A DNA stretch of 64,000 bases from Alphaproteobacteria bacterium (GTDB lineage Bacteria; Pseudomonadota; Alphaproteobacteria; CBDDJK01): contig OZ245897.1 in assembly GCA_965229675.1 (NCBI GenBank), positions 1,046,092 to 1,110,091 on the forward strand. The letters are read 5' to 3'. Below the pieces are notes generated by a model that did no database searches, was not told where the DNA came from, and saw nothing but the letters and a program-made list of their open reading frames with translations. How positions within the stretch are numbered: the stretch's first letter is position 1; each line of letters opens with the position of its first letter. The position numbers and the translations under genes are program-made. Shown here piece by piece: positions 18,280 through 31,399 of the stretch.

Positions 18280-20373
18280 ATGAATCGCATGAATAATTCT
18301 GCAAAAGACAGCAAAACAAATACAGCTGAGCAATCCTCCGCCAAGCAGGAAGCACCCAAACAAGGAACAACAAGTGAAACTGAAGAATCCAAACGTGATT
18401 TTTCTGGCTTGCGGGCGGCGTTTGATAAATTGCTGAAACGGGGCAAAGACCGTGGCTATATTACATTTGATGAATTAAACCAAAACTTGCCCGAAGATAA
18501 ACTTTCGTCTGAACAGATTGAAGATACGATCACCCGCTTGAACGAGATGGGAATTTCTGTGGTCGAAAATGAAGAAGAAGAGACATCGGAAAAGGATGAT
18601 GGTACCGAGGATGAACCAGATGCCGTTGGCTTAACTGGTGATCAAGAGGCCGATGAAGTTACCGAAACCAAGGATGTAGGGCGCACGGATGATCCTGTTC
18701 GGATGTATTTACGTGATATGGGGGCAGTTGAACTGCTAACCCGCGAAGGCGAAATCGCAATTGCCAAACGCATTGAATATGGTCGGGAAGATATGATTTG
18801 CGCCCTTTGTGAAAGTCCTCTTACGATGCGTAAAATTGCTGAGTGGCATGACCAGCTTGTTGAAGGTACCTTATTATTACGTGATGTGATTGATCTTGAT
18901 GCAACCATGAATGCAGGGCCTTCCTTTGAAGATGAAGAAGAGGGAGAAGAAACAGAAGAAGGAGCCGAAGAAACACTTGTGGCTAAGGCACAAGATGCAA
19001 AACGATCCGCATTGCAAGCGGGCGATTCCAATCCTGATTTAAAATCGGATCAAGAAGATGATACGTTTGATGAAGATTCTGAAGAATTGGATGAAGATGG
19101 TTTTAATAATATGTCAATGGCGGCGATGGAAAATGTCTTAAAAGTTTCGGTGCTTGAGATGTTTGAAAATATTGCTGACACTTATAAAAAATTACAAAAA
19201 TCGCAAGAAAAACGAATTGCTGCCTTGCAAGCTGGTAAAAAAGTTGCGCCTGCGACCGAGCGTAGTTACCAGCGCAATCGCGATAGTTTGGTGCAGCTGA
19301 TGCAAGAAGTTAAATTGAATGATGCGCGCATTGAACAGCTGGTAGGGGAACTTTACACCATCAATAAAGACCTGCTTGGGCTTGAAGGTAAATTGATGCG
19401 TATGGCACTCGATTGCAAAATCTCCCGCGAGGATTTTTTAAAACATTATTATAATCGTGAACTTGATCCTAATTGGTTGGAACAAGTCTCTGGTCTATCT
19501 AAGGCTTGGGGTAAGTTTGCAACCAATAATGCAACTAAGATTGAAAAAGTTCGCACAGAAATTGCCGATCTTTCCGATCAAACACGCATGCCAATTGCTG
19601 AATTTCGTCGTATTTCTCAAGCTGTCCAGCAAGGAGAGCGAGATGCAAATGAAGCCAAGAAAGAAATGATTGAGGCAAATTTACGCCTAGTCATATCCAT
19701 TGCTAAGAAATATACCAATCGCGGCTTGCAATTCCTAGATTTGATTCAAGAGGGTAATATTGGCTTGATGAAAGCGGTTGATAAATTTGAATATCGCCGT
19801 GGGTATAAATTTTCAACCTATGCAACTTGGTGGATTCGCCAAGCCATTACGCGTTCCATCGCTGATCAAGCGCGAACCATCCGCATTCCAGTGCATATGA
19901 TTGAAACAATCAATAAGCTTGTCCGCACCAGTCGCATTATGCTGAATGAGATTGGACGGGAAGCCACGCCAGAGGAGTTAGCAACCCGCTTGCATATGCC
20001 CGTTGATAAGGTGCGTAAAGTGATGAAAATTGCCAAAGAGCCAATTTCACTTGAAACCCCAGTTGGGGATGAAGAGGATTCGCATCTTGGTGATTTTATT
20101 GAAGATCGTAATGCCTTGTTGCCATCCGATTCAGCGGCGCAATCTAATTTGCGGGAAACAACAACGCGGATTTTAGCGTCCTTAACTGCGCGCGAAGAAC
20201 GTGTATTGCGGATGCGATTCGGAATTGGGATGCAGTCAGATCATACATTGGAAGAAGTTGGACAACAATTTTCAGTTACCCGTGAGCGGATTCGCCAAAT
20301 TGAGGCCAAAGCGTTACGCAAATTAAAACATCCAACACGTTCACGTAAATTACGTAGCTTTCTTGATCATTAA
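18280..20373 (+). CDS. rpoD: RNA polymerase primary sigma factor sigma-70
   Basis: Regions 1.2-4.2 are all present, including [19 protein letters not shown] and the 4.2 [31 protein letters not shown] long acidic non-conserved region is typical of alphaproteobacteria. Confidence 0.95.
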
Positions 20374-20376
20374 ATC

Positions 20377-20832
20377 ATGATAACCCGCATTGGGGCTGAG
20401 ATTGCAACATTAGGGGTTGGTAAAAGCCCGATCGCCCCAGGCACAATGGGAAGCCTGCTTGGGTTTGTTCTTGCATTCTTATTGATGCCAAATTTATCCT
20501 TAATCCTAAACTGGGGGATAATTATTGGTGCGGCACTGATTGGCTGGTGGGCTGCCGATTGCTATCAAACTTATCATAAAAAGATTGATGCGCCCGAAGT
20601 GGTGATTGATGAATTATCTGGGTTGTGGCTTTGCTATGGTTTAATTGAATTAACCCCGATAATGATGATCGCTGGACTTATTTTGTTTCGGTTTTTTGAT
20701 ATTATTAAGCCTTGGCCGATTGGCTGGATTGATAAGCGATTGAAAAATCCGTTTGGCACGATGTTGGATGATTGGTTAGCAGGGCTTGCTTCTGCTGGTA
20801 CGCTTTTGCTTATTGAATTTTTATGGCTTTAA
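20377..20832 (+). CDS. pgpA: Phosphatidylglycerophosphatase A
   Basis: 151-aa membrane protein with the PgpA N-terminal motif GVGKSPIAPGTMGSL. Confidence 0.7.
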   Translation: MITRIGAEIATLGVGKSPIAPGTMGSLLGFVLAFLLMPNLSLILNWGIIIGAALIGWWAADCYQTYHKKIDAPEVVIDELSGLWLCYGLIELTPIMMIAGLILFRFFDIIKPWPIGWIDKRLKNPFGTMLDDWLAGLASAGTLLLIEFLWL

Positions 20833-21590
20833 TCGTCGATAATCTTGTTGGAAGCTATCAAAGCGAAGATGGTTCGCTTAAACCCGCAATAGGCTCTTTA
20901 TCATTTACGCACCAAGCGGGTAGCTTTTTAACCATTGTTGGCCCTTCTGGTTGTGGAAAATCAACGCTTTTAAATCTAATTGGTGGCTTTATAAAAGCAG
21001 AATGCGGTAGCATCCATTTTAATAACAAACAGGTTATAGCCCCCTATTCTGGTTGTGGTATTGTTTTTCAACAGGGAGATTTATTTGATTGGCTTACCTT
21101 ACGCCAGAATATTGAATTTGGATTAAGAATGGGTGGCAAATCACGCGCTGAATATCGAAAATGTTCTGATGAATGGCTTGCTAAAATTGGGCTTCAACAT
21201 GCTGCCGATCAATTACCCCCAACCTTATCGGGGGGAATGGCGCAGCGTACTGCATTGGCACGGGCATTAGCAAATGATCCGGAAATTTTATTGCTGGACG
21301 AACCATTGGGGGCATTGGATGCTTTGACACGTGAATCCATGCAACAATTATTGCTTAGTTTATGGTTGGATAGCCGCAAAACAATGGTGATGGTCACCCA
21401 TAATATTGAGGAGGCTATTTTGCTTGGTCAAAGGGTATTAATCCTCTCCCCCTCTCCTGGTATTATCATTGGTGATCTTGAAATCCCATTTTCAGATGCA
21501 GAACGCGCTAATCCCACTATCCTTTATGCCAATCCTGATTTTATCGCCTTACGGCAGAAAATTTATGGTTTATTACATAGCAATTCATAA
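20823..21590 (+). CDS. ABC transporter ATP-binding protein (NitT/TauT-like family), orphan
   Basis: Walker A GPSGCGKST, signature LSGGMAQRTALARAL, Walker B LLLDEP. No adjacent permease. Confidence 0.8.
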   Translation: MALIVDNLVGSYQSEDGSLKPAIGSLSFTHQAGSFLTIVGPSGCGKSTLLNLIGGFIKAECGSIHFNNKQVIAPYSGCGIVFQQGDLFDWLTLRQNIEFGLRMGGKSRAEYRKCSDEWLAKIGLQHAADQLPPTLSGGMAQRTALARALANDPEILLLDEPLGALDALTRESMQQLLLSLWLDSRKTMVMVTHNIEEAILLGQRVLILSPSPGIIIGDLEIPFSDAERANPTILYANPDFIALRQKIYGLLHSNS

Positions 21591-21718
21591 AAAATCATTG
21601 CTAATTTACGATAAATGTTAAGAAATATTACATGAAAAAGATGGAAATTAAATAATTAGTCCGCTATAATCCTATTTGAATTTATTACAGGATTATTCGT
21701 TCGATTTAGGGGAAGCGT

Positions 21719-22024
21719 TTGATTAGAGTATTAATAAATATGATAATTGGTATAGGCCTAGTGTCTTTTGTTGCCAATGCAAATGCAGATGATTTGCTTT
21801 ATGGGGAATATCTTGCAGGCGAATGCACAAGTTGTCATAGTCCAAGTGCTGAAAACATCCCATCATTAGAAGGGATGGAGCCTGATTATTTTATTGAAGC
21901 CATGAAAGATTATGCTTCTGGTGAACGAGAGAATCAGGTAATGCAAAATGTGGCCTTATCGTTAGGAGAGGCAGAACTACGTGCGCTTGCTTTGTGGTTT
22001 AAAACGCAAGGAGAGCAAAATTAA
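21719..22024 (+). CDS. Small secreted cytochrome c-like protein (single CxxCH)
   Basis: Signal-peptide-like N-terminus, then GECTSCHS (CxxCH), with a downstream Met (NQVMQN) as a possible axial ligand. 101 aa. Confidence 0.45.
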   Translation: MIRVLINMIIGIGLVSFVANANADDLLYGEYLAGECTSCHSPSAENIPSLEGMEPDYFIEAMKDYASGERENQVMQNVALSLGEAELRALALWFKTQGEQN

Positions 22025-22073
22025 AATCAATAATTTTAAAGCTTTTTATTAAAAACCATCTTAGGAGAAAATA

Positions 22074-22583
22074 ATGCGGCCAATGATTGAAAATGCGTTG
22101 ATCGTTGCCTTATGGTTAGAAAATGAAAGTAAAAAAGACTGTTATCGTTTGCAACCCACGCATCTCCATCTTTTGCTTTATCAAGCACAAGTAATTTACA
22201 CCTTGGAAGCGCCAGGTTCCATGTTAATGCCCGCACAATTTGCTGCCTTTAAGGATGGCCCGCGTGAACCCACCCTTTATGCGATTATGAGTGAATTGCC
22301 TTATCTTGGTGATGCGCCACCTTTAACCGATGAGCCGCAAGCATTTTTAGATCGCTTTTGGTCAAAATTTGGGCATAAACAGGCTAAAACCCTATTAAAA
22401 GAAATTCATAATCATCCGCCATTTTCTAAAAGCCTTAAGCGCGGGGAAGGCTCAATCATTCCATTGGATACGATTATTGATTATAGCAAACAATATAAAC
22501 AGCGTAAGGATTTTATCAAAGTTGCCGATGGTCGCCATCTTATGCGATGGACACCACAACGCCATAAAGCGGCGCAACGATAA
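22074..22583 (+). CDS. Panacea-domain (DUF4065 / SocA-like antitoxin-type) protein
   Basis: The N-terminal half matches the DUF4065 pattern: ...HLHLLLYQAQVIYTLEAPGSMLMPAQFAAFKDGPREPTLY (K/H-L-x-K-L-L-Y-x-A-Q...W..GPV.P..Y). Confidence 0.55.
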   Translation: MRPMIENALIVALWLENESKKDCYRLQPTHLHLLLYQAQVIYTLEAPGSMLMPAQFAAFKDGPREPTLYAIMSELPYLGDAPPLTDEPQAFLDRFWSKFGHKQAKTLLKEIHNHPPFSKSLKRGEGSIIPLDTIIDYSKQYKQRKDFIKVADGRHLMRWTPQRHKAAQR

Positions 22584-22589
22584 AAATTT

Positions 22590-23780
22590 TCAGTCTTGAA
22601 CAGTTAATGTTTTTTGAAATAAGGCGAATATTGCCGCAATCAAAAGAATAATCCCACCTGCAATTAATCCAGTTGATAAATCCGCACTATAATCTGAAAG
22701 GTAACCTGCGCCGATTGGTCCTATCGTCTGGCCAATTGAAAAAGCGGTTGTATAAAGTGCAATTGCACCGCCCCATTGTGCCTTAGGTAGATTTTTCTTA
22801 CTAAATGCTGTTACTGCAGTTGGCGCAATAAGAAAAGATAGGCCAAATAAAATCGCCGAGACCATTACCCCAATCCATCCATAAAAAAATATGGGAAATA
22901 AGGTGCCAACTGCGGTTGCCAGCGAAGAAGCCGCCAAGGGAAACCCATTATTATAGCGTTGAAGCACATGCCGCCATAAGAAAGGGGCAATCATAACTGC
23001 CCCGCCGATTAATCCCCAGCATAGCACAACCATCGCCACAGGTGCGCCATTTTGTTGCAACCAAGCAATTACAAAAGTCATATAGATAATATAACCAATC
23101 GCGAAAATGAAATATCCCACTAAAGAGGGAAAAAGACGCCTTATTGGTAATCCAAATTGCGTAGATTGTGTTTGTTTTGCCGCAAAATAATTATAAAAAA
23201 ACAAACATAATAACGTTAAGCCTAGGCTGATTGAACCCAAAATAATCCATGCAGTTCCCCAAGCAGCATCACCAATAATTGCAAACATTGGGGGTAATAT
23301 CAGTGCGGTTGCTAGCATACCAGCCCCAACGCCACCAAAATAAATTGCAATGGCTAACGCATTTTTTAAAGCATGTTCTGACCAAAATGCCGCAGCAATC
23401 ACTGCCCCTGAAATAAATACAGCCGCACCGCCTATGCCAGATAATATTCGTGTTAAATTTAATAGGTAAAAATCATTGGTTAAACCTGAACCTAGTAATG
23501 AAAGCGAGGTTAATAGCATCCCAGCTAAAAATAATTTCACAGGTTGCACATGATAACTAAATAACAAAGCCAATACTGCGCCGATTAAATATCCAAGTGC
23601 GTTGGTTGTATTAATCCATCCTGCTAACGCATAAGTCCAGCCAAGCTCTGTTTTCATGGAAGGTAGGATCAAAGCATAGCCAAAGCGCGCAAAGCCATTA
23701 CCAACCGCAGGGCCAAGTGCCAGAATGATCAAAGGAATCCATGAACGCATTTTAAATTTTTTTAAGATAAACAGGAACAA
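22590..23780 (-). CDS. MFS-family transporter (probable efflux/export permease)
   Basis: 396 aa with about 12 predicted TM helices and glycine-rich loops typical of MFS. Transcribed divergently from the carrier-protein cluster together with the TetR gene. Confidence 0.7.
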   Translation of the reverse strand: MFLFILKKFKMRSWIPLIILALGPAVGNGFARFGYALILPSMKTELGWTYALAGWINTTNALGYLIGAVLALLFSYHVQPVKLFLAGMLLTSLSLLGSGLTNDFYLLNLTRILSGIGGAAVFISGAVIAAAFWSEHALKNALAIAIYFGGVGAGMLATALILPPMFAIIGDAAWGTAWIILGSISLGLTLLCLFFYNYFAAKQTQSTQFGLPIRRLFPSLVGYFIFAIGYIIYMTFVIAWLQQNGAPVAMVVLCWGLIGGAVMIAPFLWRHVLQRYNNGFPLAASSLATAVGTLFPIFFYGWIGVMVSAILFGLSFLIAPTAVTAFSKKNLPKAQWGGAIALYTTAFSIGQTIGPIGAGYLSDYSADLSTGLIAGGIILLIAAIFALFQKTLTVQD

Positions 23781-23795
23781 GAATATATTTGATTT

Positions 23796-24473
23796 TCAAG
23801 CATGATCAACAGTTTCAAAAGCGGTAGGTGCTTTAACAATCGAAAGCGCAGATTGAAGGGCATAATCAATTGGTTCAGGCGCTTGCTGAATATAAGATTC
23901 AATAATTGCGCCATCCCATAGCATAAGAATTTGTTGGGCTTTAACTTCGGCGTTTTTTGCGTTCATATATTGTAGAAGCGTTTGTTCAATTTCTCGTTTG
24001 ATCCATAATTTGTGATTACGGACAAGCTGATGCACTTCACTATCAGGATCGCTCACTTGAACGGCAGAATTCATAAACATACACCCCCTAAAATTATCTT
24101 CTTTTCTAAGGCAAAAAACAATATCAAATAAGGTTTCAATACCCAATACAGGATCATTTTTATCCTTAAAAGCTTCTTTGACCATTTCACGCCGCTTATT
24201 CAGATAACGTTCCAGCACCGCAATGGTTAAATCATGCTTATTTTTAAAAATATTATAAAGGGACATTCTGGATACATTTGCGGTTTCGATAATTTCTGTA
24301 ATTCCAACCGAAGGAATACCCTTTTGATACATTAATTTAGAGGCCGCATCAATTAACCGTTCCCTTGCCCCGCTTTGATGTTTGATAACCCTTTGATTTT
24401 TATCGTTAGGTGTATTTTGTTTAAGCGTATCTTTTTGATCAGCCTCATGCTTTTTCTTTTGTTTTTTCATCAT
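23796..24473 (-). CDS. TetR-family transcriptional regulator
   Basis: TetR_N HTH: RERLIDAASKLMYQKGIPSVGITEIIETANVSRMSLYNIFKNKHDL, with a Lys-rich N-terminal tail. Confidence 0.75.
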   Translation of the reverse strand: MMKKQKKKHEADQKDTLKQNTPNDKNQRVIKHQSGARERLIDAASKLMYQKGIPSVGITEIIETANVSRMSLYNIFKNKHDLTIAVLERYLNKRREMVKEAFKDKNDPVLGIETLFDIVFCLRKEDNFRGCMFMNSAVQVSDPDSEVHQLVRNHKLWIKREIEQTLLQYMNAKNAEVKAQQILMLWDGAIIESYIQQAPEPIDYALQSALSIVKAPTAFETVDHA

Positions 24474-24587
24474 TGCAGTTCCATAAAAATTACACCTAAT
24501 CCGTTTAAATAAAAAAAATATAGTTTTTTAGTAATTTGTTGTTTTTGGATGCTTGACTCCCATTAAGCAGACCGATATAAAATTAGG

Positions 24588-24603
24588 TAGACCGATCAGT
24601 CTA
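24588..24603. promoter_or_regulatory. Candidate TetR operator: imperfect palindrome TAGACCGATCAGTCTA, with an upstream direct half-site repeat AGACCGAT at 24569-24576
   Basis: A 16-bp inverted repeat with one mismatch lies in the 275-bp AT-rich divergent intergenic region between the TetR gene and the ACP-like gene. Confidence 0.3.
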
Positions 24604-24748
24604 ATTTTATTAATGACGCTAACTTTTGTCAAGTTAAGTTTTTATGTATTAAGCTGTTATTTAAATATTTTAACAATTTAATGTCTTAATTTGGCTAGTT
24701 GAAATTAAAAACGTTTAAAACTTTATTTATTGTGAAGAGAGCCCAACC

Positions 24749-25030
24749 ATGGACGATGCTATTAAAAAAATTCAATCCTATATTGAAGCAAAAAATCCAG
24801 AATATACTAATCTTTCTGTGAATACCGATATTATTGAAAATCGCTTGATCGACTCCCTCCAATTTGTCGAGTTTGTTCTATATATTGAAGAAGTTGCTGA
24901 AGTCACAATTGATATGGAACTTGCTGATATTGAAGATTTTCGTAGCCTTAATAACCTTACTGCTTTTATCGATCGCTTACGACAAGAAGAAAGCGCTACA
25001 GCCCCCACCCTAAGCGAGGTTGAAGCTTAA
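24749..25030 (+). CDS. Acyl/peptidyl carrier protein (PP-binding, ACP-like)
   Basis: 93 aa, acidic. RLIDSLQFVEFVLYIEE matches the ACP phosphopantetheine-attachment region (DSL, with Ser as the presumed 4'-PP site). Confidence 0.7.
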   Translation: MDDAIKKIQSYIEAKNPEYTNLSVNTDIIENRLIDSLQFVEFVLYIEEVAEVTIDMELADIEDFRSLNNLTAFIDRLRQEESATAPTLSEVEA

Positions 25031-25484
25031 AAAAATGCAATTTGCCGAGGATTATAAAAAGGGTGATATTTATTACTTGGGTAGTTATCAGCTTGAAGCA
25101 GAAGAAATGATTACATTTGCAACCCAATATGATCCACAACCTTACCATTTAAGCGAGGAAGAAGGTGCAAAATCTCCTTTTAATGGTCTGATTGCAAGCG
25201 GTTGGAATATTGCTGGTATATGGATGAAGCTTTATGTCACCCATATGCTGGACGGCGCGAAGGTTTTTGGCTCCCCAGGTGTGGACGAAGTTCGGTTTAA
25301 ACAACCTGTGCGCCCAGGTCAAATCCTAGAAGGTAAGGTTGAGATTTTAGACCGTTTGCCTTCTTTTTCAGATAAAAGCATTATGATCATCCGTAAATAT
25401 GGAACGTTGAGCGTTGCGGGCGATGACCGTCCTGTTTTCAGCCTTATTCTTAATAGTCGCTTTGCAAAAAGGACATATTACTGA
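25020..25484 (+). CDS. MaoC-like hot-dog fold protein (dehydratase/hydratase or thioesterase-like)
   Basis: 154 aa. It has the MaoC signature region FNGLIASGWNIAG...PVRPGQILEG. Confidence 0.65.
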   Translation: MKLKKMQFAEDYKKGDIYYLGSYQLEAEEMITFATQYDPQPYHLSEEEGAKSPFNGLIASGWNIAGIWMKLYVTHMLDGAKVFGSPGVDEVRFKQPVRPGQILEGKVEILDRLPSFSDKSIMIIRKYGTLSVAGDDRPVFSLILNSRFAKRTYY

Positions 25485-26350
25485 TGAAGGCTGTTTCTTA
25501 TACGGCACAATGGACTGCAGCAATCAGGGCGCGTGAAAGCACACTTGCCGAAGGGCGTTTGTTCAATGATCAGCTGGCAGAAGAGCTTGCACAACCAGAT
25601 GGTTTTCGCTTACTTGAAAAATATAAAGGTGGAGGTGTACAAGAATTTGTGATCATTCGTACCCGCTATTTCGATGACGCGATTCAGGCAGCATTAGATC
25701 ATGATCAATTTCGTCAGATTGTTTTTATTGCAGCTGGCATGGATACCAGAGCTTTTCGTCTAAACTGGCCAGATGGTGCAGTGCTTTATGAGATTGATCA
25801 TGAAGGTTTACTTGAAGAAAAGCAAAAACGCCTGTCAAAATTGGGGGCATCGCCAAACGTAAAACGGATTGAGGTCGCAGCCGATTTTTCACAGCCATGG
25901 ATTAATTCTCTTATCAATGCAGGCTTCTTACGTGATCAAAAAACTTTATGGGTTGCTGAAGGTTTATTATTTTTTCTTGAACAAAAGGAAGTTATCGACC
26001 TGCTTGAAGTAACGGGTGGGGCTTCTGCGCCTCATAGTCGATTGTTAACGGATATGAATAATAATATTTTGTTGCAAAGCCCGATGAGTCGATTTTTCAT
26101 GGAAACACTTAAAAGAGATGGGACACCATGGCGATTTGGTACCAATGCCCCCAGTGAATTTTTAGGCAGCCATCATTGGCAGGTGATTGAGCTTAAAGAG
26201 CCAGGGCAAACCAAGGCAGGGCTTACGCGATGGCCCTATGAAACCCACGATAGTGCAATAAAAAATGTGCCAAGAAGCTGGCTTATTCAAGCGCAGATTG
26301 ATCACAACCGAACATTATTTAATAATGAAAGAGAGGGTATATGCGCATAG
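25484..26350 (+). CDS. SAM-dependent methyltransferase of the LCM/TcmP (putative O-/carboxyl-methyltransferase) family
   Basis: TRYFDD...FIAAGMDTRAFRL...YEIDHEG...WVAEGLLFFL match the PF04072 Leu-carboxyl methyltransferase-like family. Confidence 0.7.
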   Translation: MKAVSYTAQWTAAIRARESTLAEGRLFNDQLAEELAQPDGFRLLEKYKGGGVQEFVIIRTRYFDDAIQAALDHDQFRQIVFIAAGMDTRAFRLNWPDGAVLYEIDHEGLLEEKQKRLSKLGASPNVKRIEVAADFSQPWINSLINAGFLRDQKTLWVAEGLLFFLEQKEVIDLLEVTGGASAPHSRLLTDMNNNILLQSPMSRFFMETLKRDGTPWRFGTNAPSEFLGSHHWQVIELKEPGQTKAGLTRWPYETHDSAIKNVPRSWLIQAQIDHNRTLFNNEREGICA

Positions 26351-27201
26351 TCGGAGGGTGGCTTGATGTTCAGCATCGCCTTGAAAAAACGCTTGATACT
26401 TTGTTTGAGCTACCCACGCATCAACATATTCACTTTGATTCCATTTTATCGATTGAGGAATTAGATAAGATTGATTATGCGCGTAACTTCCCGCATCTGA
26501 CTTGCCTTGGTTGCGCCTTGGCAGATAAAACCCATCAAGGGCTTTCGGATAATGAACTTAGCTTGAAATCCGCCGCCAGAATAGGAAATACAAGATTTGC
26601 GCTTTTACCAGCGACTTGTTTTAAAGTCTATCTTTCACTTGAAGGATTGGAGCTTAACCATAGCCATCATCTTGGCTGTAGTGCTTCATGTTTTCGCAAT
26701 GAAGACAAGGCGTTGGATGACTATCGTGGTCTTAATTTTACGATGAAAGAGTTTGTTTGCGTTGGTAATCAGATGGATGCAAAACGCCATATTGAACAAG
26801 GCATAGCACGCGTTAGTTTGTTATTTTAACGGCTTGGTATTCCGTTTAATATTGAAAATGCCATGGATCCTTTCTTTGATAATAAAGCTTCTCAGGCGAT
26901 TCTTTCAAAGCTTTCCCCAACAAAACGGGAATTCATATTTGATGGCCATGCCGTGGCTTCAGCGAACTTTCACCGCAATTTCTTTGGTGAAAAATTATCA
27001 ATTACCCTTAATGGTGAAGCAGTTAATACAAGCTGCGTTGCTTTTGGTATTGAACGATGGCTAGCAATGCTCCGCCAGATTTTTGTCAAACCAGAAAATG
27101 CGCTTTATGCCTTGAACGAATGTATGGTTGATTACCATATTGAAACCGTTCTTGGCACCTCTTCACGACAAGAAAAAGTTACAGAAGGAATAACAAAATG
27201 A
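26341..27201 (+). pseudogene. Class II aminoacyl-tRNA-synthetase (SerRS)-like amino acid:[carrier protein] ligase, interrupted by a single in-frame TAA at 26827-26829
   Basis: Both halves are in the same frame. The upstream half has SerRS motif 2 (SCFRNEDKALDDYRGLNFTMKEFVCVG, compare [26 protein letters not shown]). The downstream half has motif 3 (ITLNGEAVNTSCVAFGIERWLAML, compare TLNGSGLAVGRTLVA). There is no N-terminal tRNA-binding arm, and the total is about 285 aa. Confidence 0.6.
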
Positions 27202-28067
27202 TTGAAGCTAAACGGATGGATCGCCTGATTTCTCTTTCACATTCACATAAGGAATCATGTGATATTTACACACAGTTTGATTGGCCAGAAGCCCTTGCAG
27301 TTGATCGTTTGTGGTGCGATGAAGACCTGCTAACAACATATGACACAGAAATTCATGCACAATTAACCGATGAACAAAAATATCATTTAAGCAAGTGGGA
27401 GGCGATTAATTTTTGTAGCCTTAATGTTCATGGGATTAAAACGGTTTTGGAATTTGTTAGCCGCATTATCTATAGCCGCCGCTATGAACCCATTTCAGAA
27501 TATTTGCATTTATTTTTGTCCGAAGAAAATGATCATATGTGGTTTTTTGCAAAATTCTGTTTGATGTATGGTGGTAAGCTTTATCCTGCTTTCGCCTTTC
27601 CTGTTGGCAAGCCAAATAATCCTGTTGAAAATGACCTATATATGTTCGCAAGCACATTGATTTTTGAGGAGTTTGTCGATTTTTATAATCATCGTGTTGG
27701 CAAAAATAAGGAGGTTCACCCTGTTATTCAAGCGATTAATCATCACCACCACATTGATGAATCGCGTCATGTGTCTTTTGGCAGAGAGATTGTTAAAAGC
27801 CTATTTGATGAGCTATGTGAACAAAATGAAGACCCAGAACAACGGGAACGCATTAGCAAAACCGTTAAAGGGTTAATTGATCATTTTACGGGGCTAATGT
27901 ATAATGCCCGTGCTTATAAAGATGCAGATATTGCGCTTGGTTTAGGGTTTAAAACAGCGGCCGCCCTTCGTAATCACCTTCGTAATGATCAGCAACGCAT
28001 TCCCCATCATCATCGCTGGTTTAATCGTACTGAACGTTATTTTGAACGGATTGGACTATTTTCATAA
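27198..28067 (+). CDS. AurF-like diiron (ferritin-like) oxygenase / N-oxygenase family protein
   Basis: 289 aa with spaced carboxylate/His motifs EENDH, IFEEF...NH and IDESRH (E/DExxH), as in PF11583 p-aminobenzoate N-oxygenase AurF/CmlI. His-rich segments HHHH are also present. Confidence 0.55.
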   Translation: MIEAKRMDRLISLSHSHKESCDIYTQFDWPEALAVDRLWCDEDLLTTYDTEIHAQLTDEQKYHLSKWEAINFCSLNVHGIKTVLEFVSRIIYSRRYEPISEYLHLFLSEENDHMWFFAKFCLMYGGKLYPAFAFPVGKPNNPVENDLYMFASTLIFEEFVDFYNHRVGKNKEVHPVIQAINHHHHIDESRHVSFGREIVKSLFDELCEQNEDPEQRERISKTVKGLIDHFTGLMYNARAYKDADIALGLGFKTAAALRNHLRNDQQRIPHHHRWFNRTERYFERIGLFS

Positions 28068-28120
28068 AATAAGTTAGATTATGTGTGCGAAAGTTTTTCT
28101 GCACAAGGCATTAACGATTT

Positions 28121-28555
28121 ATGAAAATTACGATTGATAAAGTTTCGTCATCAGAAGCGTTTCAAAAATGTATGGATATCCGTATTGCCGTTTTTGTTGA
28201 AGAACAAAAGGTACCTATGGAAGAAGAAGTAGATGGAAAAGATAGTGCTTGCGATCATTATTTATTAAGCACTGATGATTCTCCCATTGGTACAGCACGG
28301 ATATTTTTAACAGGCAATATTGCTAAAATTGGACGGGTTGCGATAGTAAAAGATTATCGGGGAAAAGGATTGGGGCGTGCCTTAATGCAACATATGATTA
28401 CTGATATTCGCACAAACCATGAAATAGAAAAAATAAAATTAAGTTCGCAGACCTATGCCATCCCGTTTTATGAAGCGTTAGGATTTATGGTTTGCAGCGA
28501 TGAATATATGGACGCTAAAATTCCCCATAAGGATATGGAATTTATCATATGTTAA
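28121..28555 (+). CDS. GNAT-family N-acyltransferase
   Basis: 144 aa. The acetyl-CoA binding motif VAIVKDYRGKGLGRALM (Q/RxxGxG/A) is present. Confidence 0.7.
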   Translation: MKITIDKVSSSEAFQKCMDIRIAVFVEEQKVPMEEEVDGKDSACDHYLLSTDDSPIGTARIFLTGNIAKIGRVAIVKDYRGKGLGRALMQHMITDIRTNHEIEKIKLSSQTYAIPFYEALGFMVCSDEYMDAKIPHKDMEFIIC

Positions 28556-28558
28556 GCC

Positions 28559-29065
28559 TTAGAGGTAAGGATTTTCGATATTTTGCGCCTTTAATAAGCT
28601 TATTTCGATTGCTTCCATGCGTTCCGCCATTTCTGATGTTTGATGATCTTCGCCCATTAAGTGAAGCATTCCATGGATTAATAGGTGAATAAAATGATGA
28701 ATAGGTTGCTTTTGTTGCGCTTCGGCTTCTTCCATAATTCGGTCAAGGGAAAGAAATATATCCCCCAAACAAGCTAATTGATCGGGGGGAAGCATAAAAT
28801 CAGTTGGGGTGGGGAAGGATAACACATTGGTTGGTTTGTCTTTGTCCCGCCATTCATTATTTAGCGTTTGTAACAATTCATCATCTGCCAAGGTTAAATT
28901 GATCGAAAATTCAAGATGATCTGATAAAATTTGTGAATCTATTTTATGAAACCGATAATAAGTTTCAAACGCTTTGCCAAGAACAGGAACAGCTTGATTT
29001 TGCCAAGATTGCGGCCATTCGCCAGCTGCAATTTCTAGTTCAACGGTGAGTATTGGAATCGTCAT
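28559..29065 (-). CDS. ybeY: Endoribonuclease YbeY (rRNA maturation factor)
   Basis: Zinc motif HLLIHGMLHLMGEDH (HxxxHxxxxxH). I placed the start at the internal Met to limit the overlap with phoH. Confidence 0.8.
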   Translation of the reverse strand: MTIPILTVELEIAAGEWPQSWQNQAVPVLGKAFETYYRFHKIDSQILSDHLEFSINLTLADDELLQTLNNEWRDKDKPTNVLSFPTPTDFMLPPDQLACLGDIFLSLDRIMEEAEAQQKQPIHHFIHLLIHGMLHLMGEDHQTSEMAERMEAIEISLLKAQNIENPYL

Positions 29066-29963
29066 AGCGTGCAATAATTTTGCTGATGAGTGCATGGCGC
29101 ATTACATCTTGTCCATCGAAGGAACAGATTGCAATTTCCTCCATCCCCTCCAAGCGATTAAGCGCATCTTTAAGCCCTGATAATTGTCCATGCGGCAAAT
29201 CAGTTTGGGTAAGATCACCATTAATGACCATTTGCGAACCAGTCCCTATGCGCGTTAATACCATCTTCATTTGCATTGGGGTTGTGTTTTGCGCCTCGTC
29301 AACAATGATGAATGCATCTTTTAAATTACGCCCACGCATATAGGCAAGTGGCGCAATTTCAATTTCTGCGGCTTCTAATTTATGAGCAAGCATTTCCTCA
29401 TTAACCATATCGCCCAACGCATCATAAATTGGGCGCAGATAAGGATCGACCTTTTCTTTTAAGGCACCAGGTAGAAAGCCAAGTCGCTCCCCTGCCTCAA
29501 CTGCTGGGCGTGTTAAAATAATGCGTTTAACCTTATGGGTAAGCAAGGCCTCGATTGCTGCTGCTGCCGCTAGCCAAGTTTTTCCGCATCCAGCAGGGCC
29601 AACGCCAAACACCATTTCCATTGTCTGCAAGGCGGTCACATAGCGCAACTGATTTTCTGTTCTTGGACTTATTTTTAATTTAGGTGTGGATAGGATAGGC
29701 GGTGTAGGCGCTGATAAATGGCGTTCAGCAAGATAATCCTTAATTAAATCGGTGGTAATATCCTCCCCCGCTTCAGCATGCTGATAAAGCCGCATTAACA
29801 GATGATGGGCGATTTCTTTAGCAGGCTCGTTCCCTTGAATATCCAGTTGGTTACCGCGATTGCGAAGGATAACCCCAAGAGCCTGCTCAATTTGCGTTAA
29901 ATGTGTGTCTTGGGTTCCGTAAACCGTGGCAGCCAGCTGATTGCTGTCAAACTCAACCCGCAT
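29040..29963 (-). CDS. PhoH-like ATPase (YbeZ)
   Basis: Walker A GPAGCGKTWLA and the PhoH family core. Conserved miaB-phoH-ybeY linkage. Confidence 0.85.
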   Translation of the reverse strand: MRVEFDSNQLAATVYGTQDTHLTQIEQALGVILRNRGNQLDIQGNEPAKEIAHHLLMRLYQHAEAGEDITTDLIKDYLAERHLSAPTPPILSTPKLKISPRTENQLRYVTALQTMEMVFGVGPAGCGKTWLAAAAAIEALLTHKVKRIILTRPAVEAGERLGFLPGALKEKVDPYLRPIYDALGDMVNEEMLAHKLEAAEIEIAPLAYMRGRNLKDAFIIVDEAQNTTPMQMKMVLTRIGTGSQMVINGDLTQTDLPHGQLSGLKDALNRLEGMEEIAICSFDGQDVMRHALISKIIARYDDSNTHR

Positions 29964-31399
29964 TAGCGAATATTTAGGGGGGTTGCGAATAAAGAATGCC
30001 CTTGTAAGCGGTCAATCTTGCATTCTATTTGCGTTCCAAGCCAAGAGTCAGGGGCATCAATATGAACAGGCTGTAAATAGGCCGAACGCCCAACCAGCTG
30101 CCCGTCGTAACGCCCTTTTTTCTCAAGTAAAATTGAGCATGTTTTTCCAATCATGGATTGGTTAAATTGCCGCTGTTGCTCAGCAAGTAATGCTTGTAAT
30201 TCGGCAAGTCTTGTTTGTTTAATAGGTTCTTCAAGCTGCGGACGTTCTGCGGCAGGTGTCCCAGGACGCGGTGAATATTTAAAGGAGAAAGACGCTGCAT
30301 AACCAACCTTACGAATTAAATTCAGGCTTGCTTGATGATCTTCATCACGTTCTTCGGGATAGCCGACAATAAAATCTGATGTAAATGCAGTTTCAGGCTG
30401 TGCGTCACGAAATTGATCGATTAACCGCAAATAATCATCTGCTGTATGCTTACGATTCATTGCCTTCAGAATTTGATCTGAACCAGATTGCACTGGCAAA
30501 TGAATAAGCGGCATTAATGCTTCAAGTTCAGCATGTGCGTTAATTAAAGATGGCGTTACATCACGGGGATGGCTGGTTGTATAGCGTAAGCGTTTTAGCC
30601 CATCAAGGCCACATAACGCATAAAGCAATCGACCAAAATCCCAATTTTTTTGTGTATCTAAGCTACTAGCTTTTGGCGGCAAGCCGTGCCAACCATTAAC
30701 ATTTTGTCCAAGCAATGTAATTTCTTGCACACCACCTGCAATTAACTGCTGCGCTTCTTGTAAGATCGCATCTGCGGGCCTAGAATATTCTGCGCCGCGT
30801 GTATAAGGAACCACACAAAAGCTACAAAATTTATCGCACCCTTCTTGGATTGATAAAAACGCCGTAACCGCCGATACGCTGGTTGGGCGTTGTTGCGGCA
30901 AATGATCAAATTTATCATATTCAGGAAAATCAGTTGCCAATAAATGAATGGGACGCATTGCTTCAGCTTGGGCATCTGCTTCTGCCAATAAGCGCGGTAA
31001 TTCTTGATAATTTTGTGGCCCAAAGACGAAATCCACTTCGGGTTGGCGGGCAAAAATCTCATCGCCTTCTGCTTGGGCAACACAACCTGCTACGGCAAGT
31101 CGTAATCTTGGATTATAACGTTTTAGGGGGATTAATCGTCCCAATTCAGAATAAAGCTTTTCAGACGCTTTTTCACGAATATGGCATGTATTTAAAATGA
31201 TTAGATCGGCTTGATTGGCTTCTGAGGTTGCGGCATAGCCCAATTCACTTAAAATATCTTGCATGCGTTCTGAATCATAAACATTCATCTGGCATCCCCA
31301 GCTTTTTATCAGCACGCGATAAGGTGCTTTTAAAGGGGAATCAATGGCTTGAAAATTTTCTGAATTTTCAATCGGTAAAGCGTTTACTCTATTCGACAT
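29963..31399 (-). CDS. miaB: tRNA-2-methylthio-N6-dimethylallyladenosine synthase (radical SAM methylthiotransferase)
   Basis: An N-terminal MTTase domain with Cys, the radical-SAM motif CDKFCSFC, and a C-terminal TRAM domain. 478 aa. Confidence 0.85.
   Translation of the reverse strand: MSNRVNALPIENSENFQAIDSPLKAPYRVLIKSWGCQMNVYDSERMQDILSELGYAATSEANQADLIILNTCHIREKASEKLYSELGRLIPLKRYNPRLRLAVAGCVAQAEGDEIFARQPEVDFVFGPQNYQELPRLLAEADAQAEAMRPIHLLATDFPEYDKFDHLPQQRPTSVSAVTAFLSIQEGCDKFCSFCVVPYTRGAEYSRPADAILQEAQQLIAGGVQEITLLGQNVNGWHGLPPKASSLDTQKNWDFGRLLYALCGLDGLKRLRYTTSHPRDVTPSLINAHAELEALMPLIHLPVQSGSDQILKAMNRKHTADDYLRLIDQFRDAQPETAFTSDFIVGYPEERDEDHQASLNLIRKVGYAASFSFKYSPRPGTPAAERPQLEEPIKQTRLAELQALLAEQQRQFNQSMIGKTCSILLEKKGRYDGQLVGRSAYLQPVHIDAPDSWLGTQIECKIDRLQGHSLFATPLNIR

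Follow-up and report, generated by a model that had tools for sequence, protein, structure and literature searches.

The locus described here raises the question of whether a single in-frame stop codon in the gene for a putative ligase of the amino acid:[carrier protein] type (aa:CP ligase) marks a real loss of the enzyme, an error in the sequence, a site of recoding or an enzyme made in two pieces. Such ligases are truncated class II enzymes resembling seryl-tRNA synthetase (SerRS), which activate an amino acid by adenylation and hand it over to a carrier protein at its phosphopantetheine arm. We analysed a stretch of 64,000 nucleotides (the window) from an uncultured alphaproteobacterium whose closest named RpoD relatives come from Rhodospirillales-like MAGs (62-72% identity). 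The features of the window that bear on the question are collected in the table.

Features of the ligase cluster and its surroundings in the window
Feature	Coordinates	Strand	Remarks
MFS transporter, neighbour of the TetR gene	22590..23780	-	
TetR-family regulator, divergent	23796..24473	-	
Acyl carrier protein (ACP), 93 aa, DSL phosphopantetheine motif	24749..25030	+	presumed ligase substrate
MaoC-like hotdog-fold protein	25020..25484	+	ATG 25035 called in relatives, 149 aa
LCM/TIGR00027-type SAM-dependent methyltransferase	25484..26350	+	10-nt overlap with ligase start
Ligase N-terminal part, 162 codons	26341..26826	+	motif 2 (CFRNE 117-121, FTMKE 133-137), C93, E137
A6 run, ligase 5' end	26384..26389	+	A7 in haplotype L001, +1 frameshift
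Premature TAA, codon 163	26827..26829	+	ancestral GAA (Glu); tetranucleotide TAAC
In-frame ligase remainder, codons 164-286 and TGA	26830..27201	+	strand 170-174, A174/D176/F178/D180 (invariant), C232, motif 3 (G236, E238, R239)
AurF-like ferritin-type diiron oxygenase	27198..28067	+	start overlaps ligase stop (ATGA)
GNAT acetyltransferase	28121..28555	+	last gene of the co-linear block common to L001, L082 and L083
ybeY, phoH and a further ORF	29963..31399 (ORF)	other strand	downstream

Translation of the window gives one frame of 286 codons that opens at ATG 26341 and closes at TGA 27199-27201, with the TAA as its only internal stop. Across the stop the frame reads GIARVSLLF-stop-RLGIPFNIENAMDPFFDNKA (in a shorter excerpt, ARVSLLF-stop-RLGIPFNIENAMDPFFD). 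The two open reading frames on either side, 26341-26829 (162 aa) and 26863-27201 (112 aa), share this frame, and the source annotation enters the two pieces as separate proteins. When the two parts are joined, NCBIfam NF005479 (‘amino acid--[acyl-carrier-protein] ligase’) is matched by residues 10-246 of the 286-residue product (E=6.6e-29, 100.8 bits) and Pfam tRNA-synt_2b by residues 115-244, and both matches span the TAA. Translation, frame check and family matches thus agree with the original prediction, which had described a ligase with exactly one in-frame TAA between motifs 2 and 3, two open reading frames in a common frame and a family alignment running straight through the stop. Since two halves of one family align contiguously over a single stop, the arrangement is not a chance pattern.

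The region 26341-27201 encodes a homologue of the aa:CP ligases, and its predicted activity is the aminoacylation of a carrier protein. At 100.8 bits, however, the ligase falls far short of the NF005479 equivalog cut-off of 357 bits, and hence belongs to a distant, separate subfamily rather than counting as an equivalog of enzymes already characterised. When 32 members of the family are aligned, motif 2 (C117-F-R119-x-E121 and FTMKE133-137) lies 5' of the stop, with motif 3 (G236-x-E238-R239) 3' of it. C93, C117, R119, E121, E137, C232, G236, E238 and R239 are invariant or nearly so, and the conserved positions after the stop are A174, D176, F178, D180, C232, G236, E238 and R239. Column 163 itself is variable, with E, S, N, D, I and others. 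There are also frameshifted-looking copies in another lineage (P0072 and P0078).

The closest solved relative by sequence is Bll0957 (PDB 3mey; phmmer, E=9e-21). An AF2 model built from the 32-sequence alignment has a mean pLDDT of 85, and its best Foldseek matches are 3pzc and 4h2s, both Bll0957 and including a complex with the carrier protein (TM 0.77), followed by methanogen-type SerRS (M. kandleri and M. barkeri). The 286-residue model covers Bll0957 almost fully (TMt 0.75) and SerRS chains only to about 40%; the ligase, with a length in the range of roughly 280-320 aa expected for such enzymes, is the catalytic core alone, without a tRNA-binding domain. Because it is a core-only protein with an ACP gene in the same operon, it resembles an aa:CP ligase in its behaviour. 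Its Cys/Glu/Cys set aligns with the Cys/Glu/Cys of Bll0957, and from published structures we take these residues to bind zinc. Two of the three putative zinc ligands, C93 and E137, lie in the part before the stop.

A review describes the aa:CP ligases as dimers that depend on zinc, are devoid of the ancestral tRNA-binding domain and have an unknown biological role (PMC9437257). The top match by both sequence and fold is thus the Gly:CP ligase Bll0957 of Bradyrhizobium (3mey/3pzc/4h2s; Mocibob et al. 2010, 2013, as relayed in PMC9437257), with which the window ligase shares motifs 2 and 3, the Cys/Glu/Cys triad, the core-only architecture and a small carrier-protein gene in the operon. Unlike Bll0957, to which it is about 24% identical, the window ligase belongs to a subfamily of its own, whose genes nearly always come with one for an AurF-like diiron oxygenase, and it is interrupted by a stop.

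The origin of the stop can be read from sister haplotypes. The cluster recurs on three contigs of an ENA metagenome assembly, ERZ25074195: L082, at 97.8% nucleotide identity (window 18346-28544), L083, which aligns over the cluster alone (window 24807-28544), and L001, at 94.2% (window 24157-30113). The three span 94-98% identity to the window. All three have GAA (Glu) at codon 163. L082 and L083 encode an identical intact ligase of 286 aa with Glu163 (P0123), and P0001 is the L001 orthologue. As GAA is found in L001, L082 and L083 alike, the stop in the window came from a G>T transversion at 26827. Over 739 nt (window 26566-27304) the window is the same as L082 and L083 except for this one base, and with flanks otherwise identical to intact alleles the nonsense mutation would be very young. 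The dN/dS was 0.03 for the N-terminal half of the ligase (window against relatives) and 0.016 for the part after the stop (window against L001), and comparison with the haplotypes showed no decay of the ligase after the stop. Judged from these ratios, the ligase was under strong purifying selection until very recently. The suggestion that any pseudogenisation would be recent is borne out by the three GAA haplotypes, by the 739 nt otherwise identical to two of them and by the lack of decay downstream. Two wider searches gave nothing closer: a 19-mer around the stop (TTGTTATTTNAACGGCTTGG), scanned through metagenome contigs, had 10 matches, none related to the window, and a search of genome contigs found no close relative among the matches listed, the best of which has 53% amino-acid identity; the lineage seems to be missing from the species representatives, or else to lie outside the listed matches.

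The same observations could be read as a consensus error, in which the true genome has GAA at 26827-26829 and the ligase gene is intact. One base is the sole difference from two intact alleles across the 739 nt, and an undecayed downstream part is expected of an error too. Moreover, the G>T change extends a run of three T to four (TTTG to TTTT), lengthening it at a homopolymer edge, and homopolymer edges are somewhat enriched in long-read consensus errors. The related contigs bear names in the style of long-read metagenome assemblers and come from a strain mixture of at least four haplotypes, which complicates polishing. Against this, long-read errors are chiefly indels and not G>T substitutions, and the T at 26827 is missing from the other haplotypes, so the base cannot stem from a chimeric consensus of them. 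We also counted substitutions private to the window against five related contigs over 13,920 positions, each covered by at least two contigs. There were 22 such positions, 21 of them in three clustered, recombination-like tracts, and 26827 alone was isolated; isolated private substitutions are hence not scattered over these roughly 14 kb. No other gene is broken among the 58 ORFs in the window, and a search for further split genes among overlapping ORF pairs across the 64 kb found none, all being separate complete genes. With no other broken gene and no isolated singletons the window consensus looks accurate. Furthermore, sister haplotypes carry other lesions in the same cluster, which indicates that genuine inactivation is occurring. 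We therefore regard a consensus error as unlikely, and a very recent, real nonsense mutation that created a loss-of-function allele as the probable explanation of the TAA.

Programmed readthrough, an option raised by the original prediction, would have the UAA decoded as sense at a useful rate to give the full-length ligase. The variability of column 163 (E/S/N/D/I and others) implies that any residue would probably be tolerated there, and TAAC is the context least used by genuine terminators in the window, where C comes next in just 1 case among 40 genuine TAA stops. The rarity of TAAC also fits an accidental stop that happens to lie ahead of the conserved Arg164 codon, CGG. The stop is, however, unconserved, with a sense codon in all three close orthologues and in all aligned family members. 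TAA is the main terminator of the window, ending 41 of the 58 ORFs of at least 90 aa, which indicates a standard genetic code. UAA is read by both release factors, and its basal readthrough in bacteria is very low. No stimulatory structure follows the stop, as the RNA 26815-26930 folds no better than its shuffles (z=+0.75). Rfam, run over the window, returned nothing apart from two ordinary tRNAs, and with ARAGORN these were tRNA-Phe(GAA) and tRNA-Gly(UCC) only. Given the unconserved stop, the use of UAA as main terminator and the absence of RNA structure downstream, the readthrough option is left unsupported and exceedingly improbable.

Two other ways past the stop were considered and rejected. 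Slippage by +1 at the T4 run (TTT-T) would lead into ORF 26834-27064, whose frame closes after 76 codons without restoring the ligase. A hop from UUU162 to UUU169 has no supporting structure and would delete the conserved L165.

An active enzyme might instead be assembled from the 162-aa N-terminal piece and a 112-aa C-terminal piece reinitiated at ATG 26863. This codon, number 175, is the first in-frame ATG past the stop and lies 33 nt after the TAA, near enough for some termination-reinitiation, and the calling of both pieces as separate proteins in the source annotation is consistent with such an arrangement. There is, however, no Shine-Dalgarno sequence at 26863, where the upstream sequence reads tattccgtttaatattgaaaatgcc, compared with GAGAGGG at the ligase start and GAAGGA at the start of the AurF-like gene; the earlier remark that this ATG has no good ribosome-binding site holds. 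Scanning for promoters and terminators inside the cluster gave nothing above shuffles and no promoter-like site before 26863. In the AF2 model codon 163 falls between a helix (144-161) and a strand (170-174), and codon 175 lies just past that strand. Residues 163-174, comprising the modelled strand, the near-invariant L165 and the invariant A174, would consequently be absent from both pieces. The orthologues are single polypeptides, and a split at or near codon 163 occurs in none of the best 120 homologues. Lacking a Shine-Dalgarno sequence, RNA structure, conservation of the stop and any split homologue, neither readthrough nor a two-piece enzyme is supported, and we consider the latter very improbable as well.

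We return to the nonsense mutation as the preferred reading. The single G>T change, turning Glu163 (GAA) into TAA, would end translation just past the helix that follows motif 2. The resulting 162-aa product would be without four core beta-strands, the third putative zinc ligand C232 and motif 3 with its ATP-binding Arg239; on the model, the loss of the strands, C232 and Arg239 means that this product should be inactive. An inactive ligase would leave the ACP unloaded. Because the start of the AurF-like gene overlaps the end of the ligase gene (ATGA), translation of the oxygenase is probably coupled to that of the ligase, and by such polarity the premature stop would probably also lower expression of the downstream oxygenase. 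The allele could nevertheless be leaky, through low near-cognate readthrough or reinitiation at ATG 26863; as position 163 is variable, any inserted residue would probably be tolerated, so residual activity is possible.

Intact orthologues with a sense codon exist and essential elements are lost 3' of the stop, as in a nonsense pseudogene. Like ordinary bacterial nonsense pseudogenes, the window allele has a stop made by one base change, intact sister strains and no compensating features. It differs from them in being extremely young, with zero further changes, and in that strains found together with it carry two further, independent lesions of this cluster. The stop itself is an ordinary phenomenon and demonstrates no new recoding mechanism.

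The remaining genes of the cluster, an operon-like block with closely packed junctions, have the lengths of their orthologues, in keeping with the earlier claim that they are intact. The lesions in the other haplotypes are of different kinds. L001 has the A7 run given in the table, its frameshifted product being MRIVGGWLDVQHRLEKNA followed by a stop; its ligase has been called from an internal out-of-frame ATG as 278 aa lacking the conserved N-terminus. This homopolymer frameshift may be an assembly error. L094 and L083, each at about 6-7x coverage, carry an identical 854-bp IS element (DUF4096 and DDE_Tnp_1) at a position corresponding to window 24807-24809, within ACP codon 20. In L094 the match to the window stops at 24809, and unrelated genes follow; L083 runs from unrelated genes through the IS into the match from 24807 onward. 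The insertion thus removes the ACP N-terminus and cuts the cluster off from the TetR gene and the promoter region. The original prediction had held that further frameshifts or stops in orthologues would favour a pseudogene. This expectation holds in part, L001 having a frameshift in the ligase gene itself and a further haplotype (L083/L094) the IS in the ACP gene.

Four co-occurring haplotypes therefore include a nonsense codon (window), a +1 frameshift (L001) and an IS insertion or rearrangement (L083/L094), and only L082 appears fully intact. It is conceivable, although we hold it unlikely, that the cluster is being repeatedly and independently knocked out in one natural population, on a background of strong long-term purifying selection (dN/dS about 0.02-0.03).

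The likely function of what was lost can be approached through gene content. We examined 80 genome loci with a ligase homologue, from Actinomycetota, Pseudomonadota, Acidobacteriota, relatives of Cyanobacteriota, Bacillota and others. An AurF-like oxygenase was found within 4.5 kb at 74 of the 80 loci, and an ACP gene beside the ligase at 65. MaoC and LCM-type methyltransferase genes accompany the ligase as in the window at 18 loci, 17 of which have the complete five-gene set, and a nitronate monooxygenase (NMO) gene is present at 19 (e.g. L039 5701-6672; Pfam NMO E=1.8e-35). Not one of the 80 loci belongs to both the NMO and the methyltransferase group. As read from its sequence, the AurF-like oxygenase of the window has the ExxH motifs together with an extra His four residues upstream (NHHHHIDESRH), which would place it in the N-oxygenase subclass.

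Ferritin-like diiron N-oxygenases that act on carrier-protein-bound substrates include PvfB and Dob3 (PMC12154687). The AurF-like neighbour is like these in its ExxH motifs and extra His and in having the genes for an ACP and a loading enzyme beside its own, whereas loading in those systems is by an NRPS or other adenylation enzyme and not by an aminoacyl-tRNA-synthetase-like ligase. According to secondary accounts of He & Ryan 2021 (PMC9967187, PMC11035981), a diiron oxygenase acts on glycine bound to a carrier protein and oxidises it to a nitronate, which is then O-methylated or denitrified by NMO. Such glycine-derived nitronate cassettes, as those accounts describe them, resemble the window cluster in combining a carrier protein, a loading enzyme, a diiron oxygenase and a methyltransferase or NMO, the likeness being one of gene content as secondarily described. 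The mutually exclusive NMO and MaoC-plus-methyltransferase sets among the 80 loci fit the bifurcation predicted from these accounts. On gene content and co-occurrence, the disabled pathway is most likely one in which carrier-protein-bound glycine would undergo diiron N-oxygenation to a nitronate and then O-methylation.

Annotators should join the two ORFs into a single ligase gene marked as carrying an internal stop, and rate the cluster in this genome as probably non-functional. That several independent lesions of one cluster occur side by side in a single community is of modest interest. If repeated knock-out is true, it would point to selection now acting for the loss of a reactive metabolite of the nitronate type, or to that metabolite having suddenly become dispensable; non-producer ‘cheaters’ are one possibility. 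Finally, the near-invariable linkage to an AurF-like oxygenase and an ACP across many phyla, together with NMO or a methyltransferase, suggests a testable physiological role for these ‘orphan’ ligases.

In the aa:CP ligase gene of L001 (L001:2239-3075), a contig that carries the same cluster and comes from one metagenome (ERZ25074195) together with L082 and L083, the 5' end (window equivalent 26384-26389) contains a run of seven A residues, compared with six in the window. The longer run puts the conserved ligase N-terminus out of frame (reading MRIVGGWLDVQHRLEKNA to a stop), and the gene as called starts at an internal ATG and encodes a 278-residue protein. The extra A may be a further lesion of independent origin, or else an error in the homopolymer. 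Terminator usage in the window is strongly biased, with TAA closing 41 of 58 ORFs; of the 40 genuine TAA stops, 31 have T or A as the next base and a single one has C. Genomic GC content is 41.6%.

Comparison of window positions 24810-28540 with L001, L082 and L083 reveals a mosaic of haplotypes. Across ACP-MaoC and across 26566-27304 the window has the same sequence as L082 and L083; it is identical to L001 from 27022 to 28540 bar one L001-private base at 27940, and has a third haplotype at 26140-26565. The mosaic indicates frequent homologous recombination among the co-occurring strains.

In another strain the ACP gene is broken at codon 20 (window 24807-24809) by an 854-bp IS element. L083 and the related contig L094, one from each side of this insertion, run on into differing genomic contexts, which means that the cluster in the IS-bearing strain has undergone IS-mediated rearrangement or translocation. 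Beyond GNAT (junction at window 28544), L082 has, in place of the ybeY of the window, an integrase-led island (L082:10394-16861) with integrase, Toprim/primase-like, AAA_25, PDDEXK and NYN genes, which is a strain-specific mobile-element insertion. Two small ORFs located between the ABC ATPase and MFS genes are both conserved in L082 and L094; for one of them the only match is a sub-threshold SocA/Panacea antitoxin-like one (E=0.0085).

Coordinates of the IS copies and of the small ORFs (window positions unless a contig is named)
Feature	Position	Strand	Remarks
IS element, DUF4096 + DDE_Tnp_1 ORFs	L083:5616-6469; L094:10220-11073		identical copies, 854 bp
Small ORF	22074-22583	+	between ABC ATPase and MFS gene; no family assignment
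Small ORF	21719-22024	+	between ABC ATPase and MFS gene; no family assignment

In another lineage, two ligase homologues from 5-6 Mb contigs, P0072 and P0078, appear to derive from a single ligase gene that was called with a frameshift or in truncated form; their N- and C-terminal stretches are garbled, and they may reflect further sporadic disruptions or assembly errors.

Among 80 genome loci with a ligase homologue (L002-L081; for example L039:3730-6672), an AurF-like diiron oxygenase adjoins the homologue at 74 and an ACP lies beside it at 65. Nitronate monooxygenase is an added gene at 19 of these loci, and MaoC together with an LCM-type methyltransferase at 18, with the full five-gene set present in 17; the two groups do not overlap. 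Collectively, the linkage of the ligase to the AurF-like oxygenase and ACP and the mutually exclusive monooxygenase and methyltransferase groups suggest a widespread two-branch nitronate pathway with aaRS-like loading enzymes.
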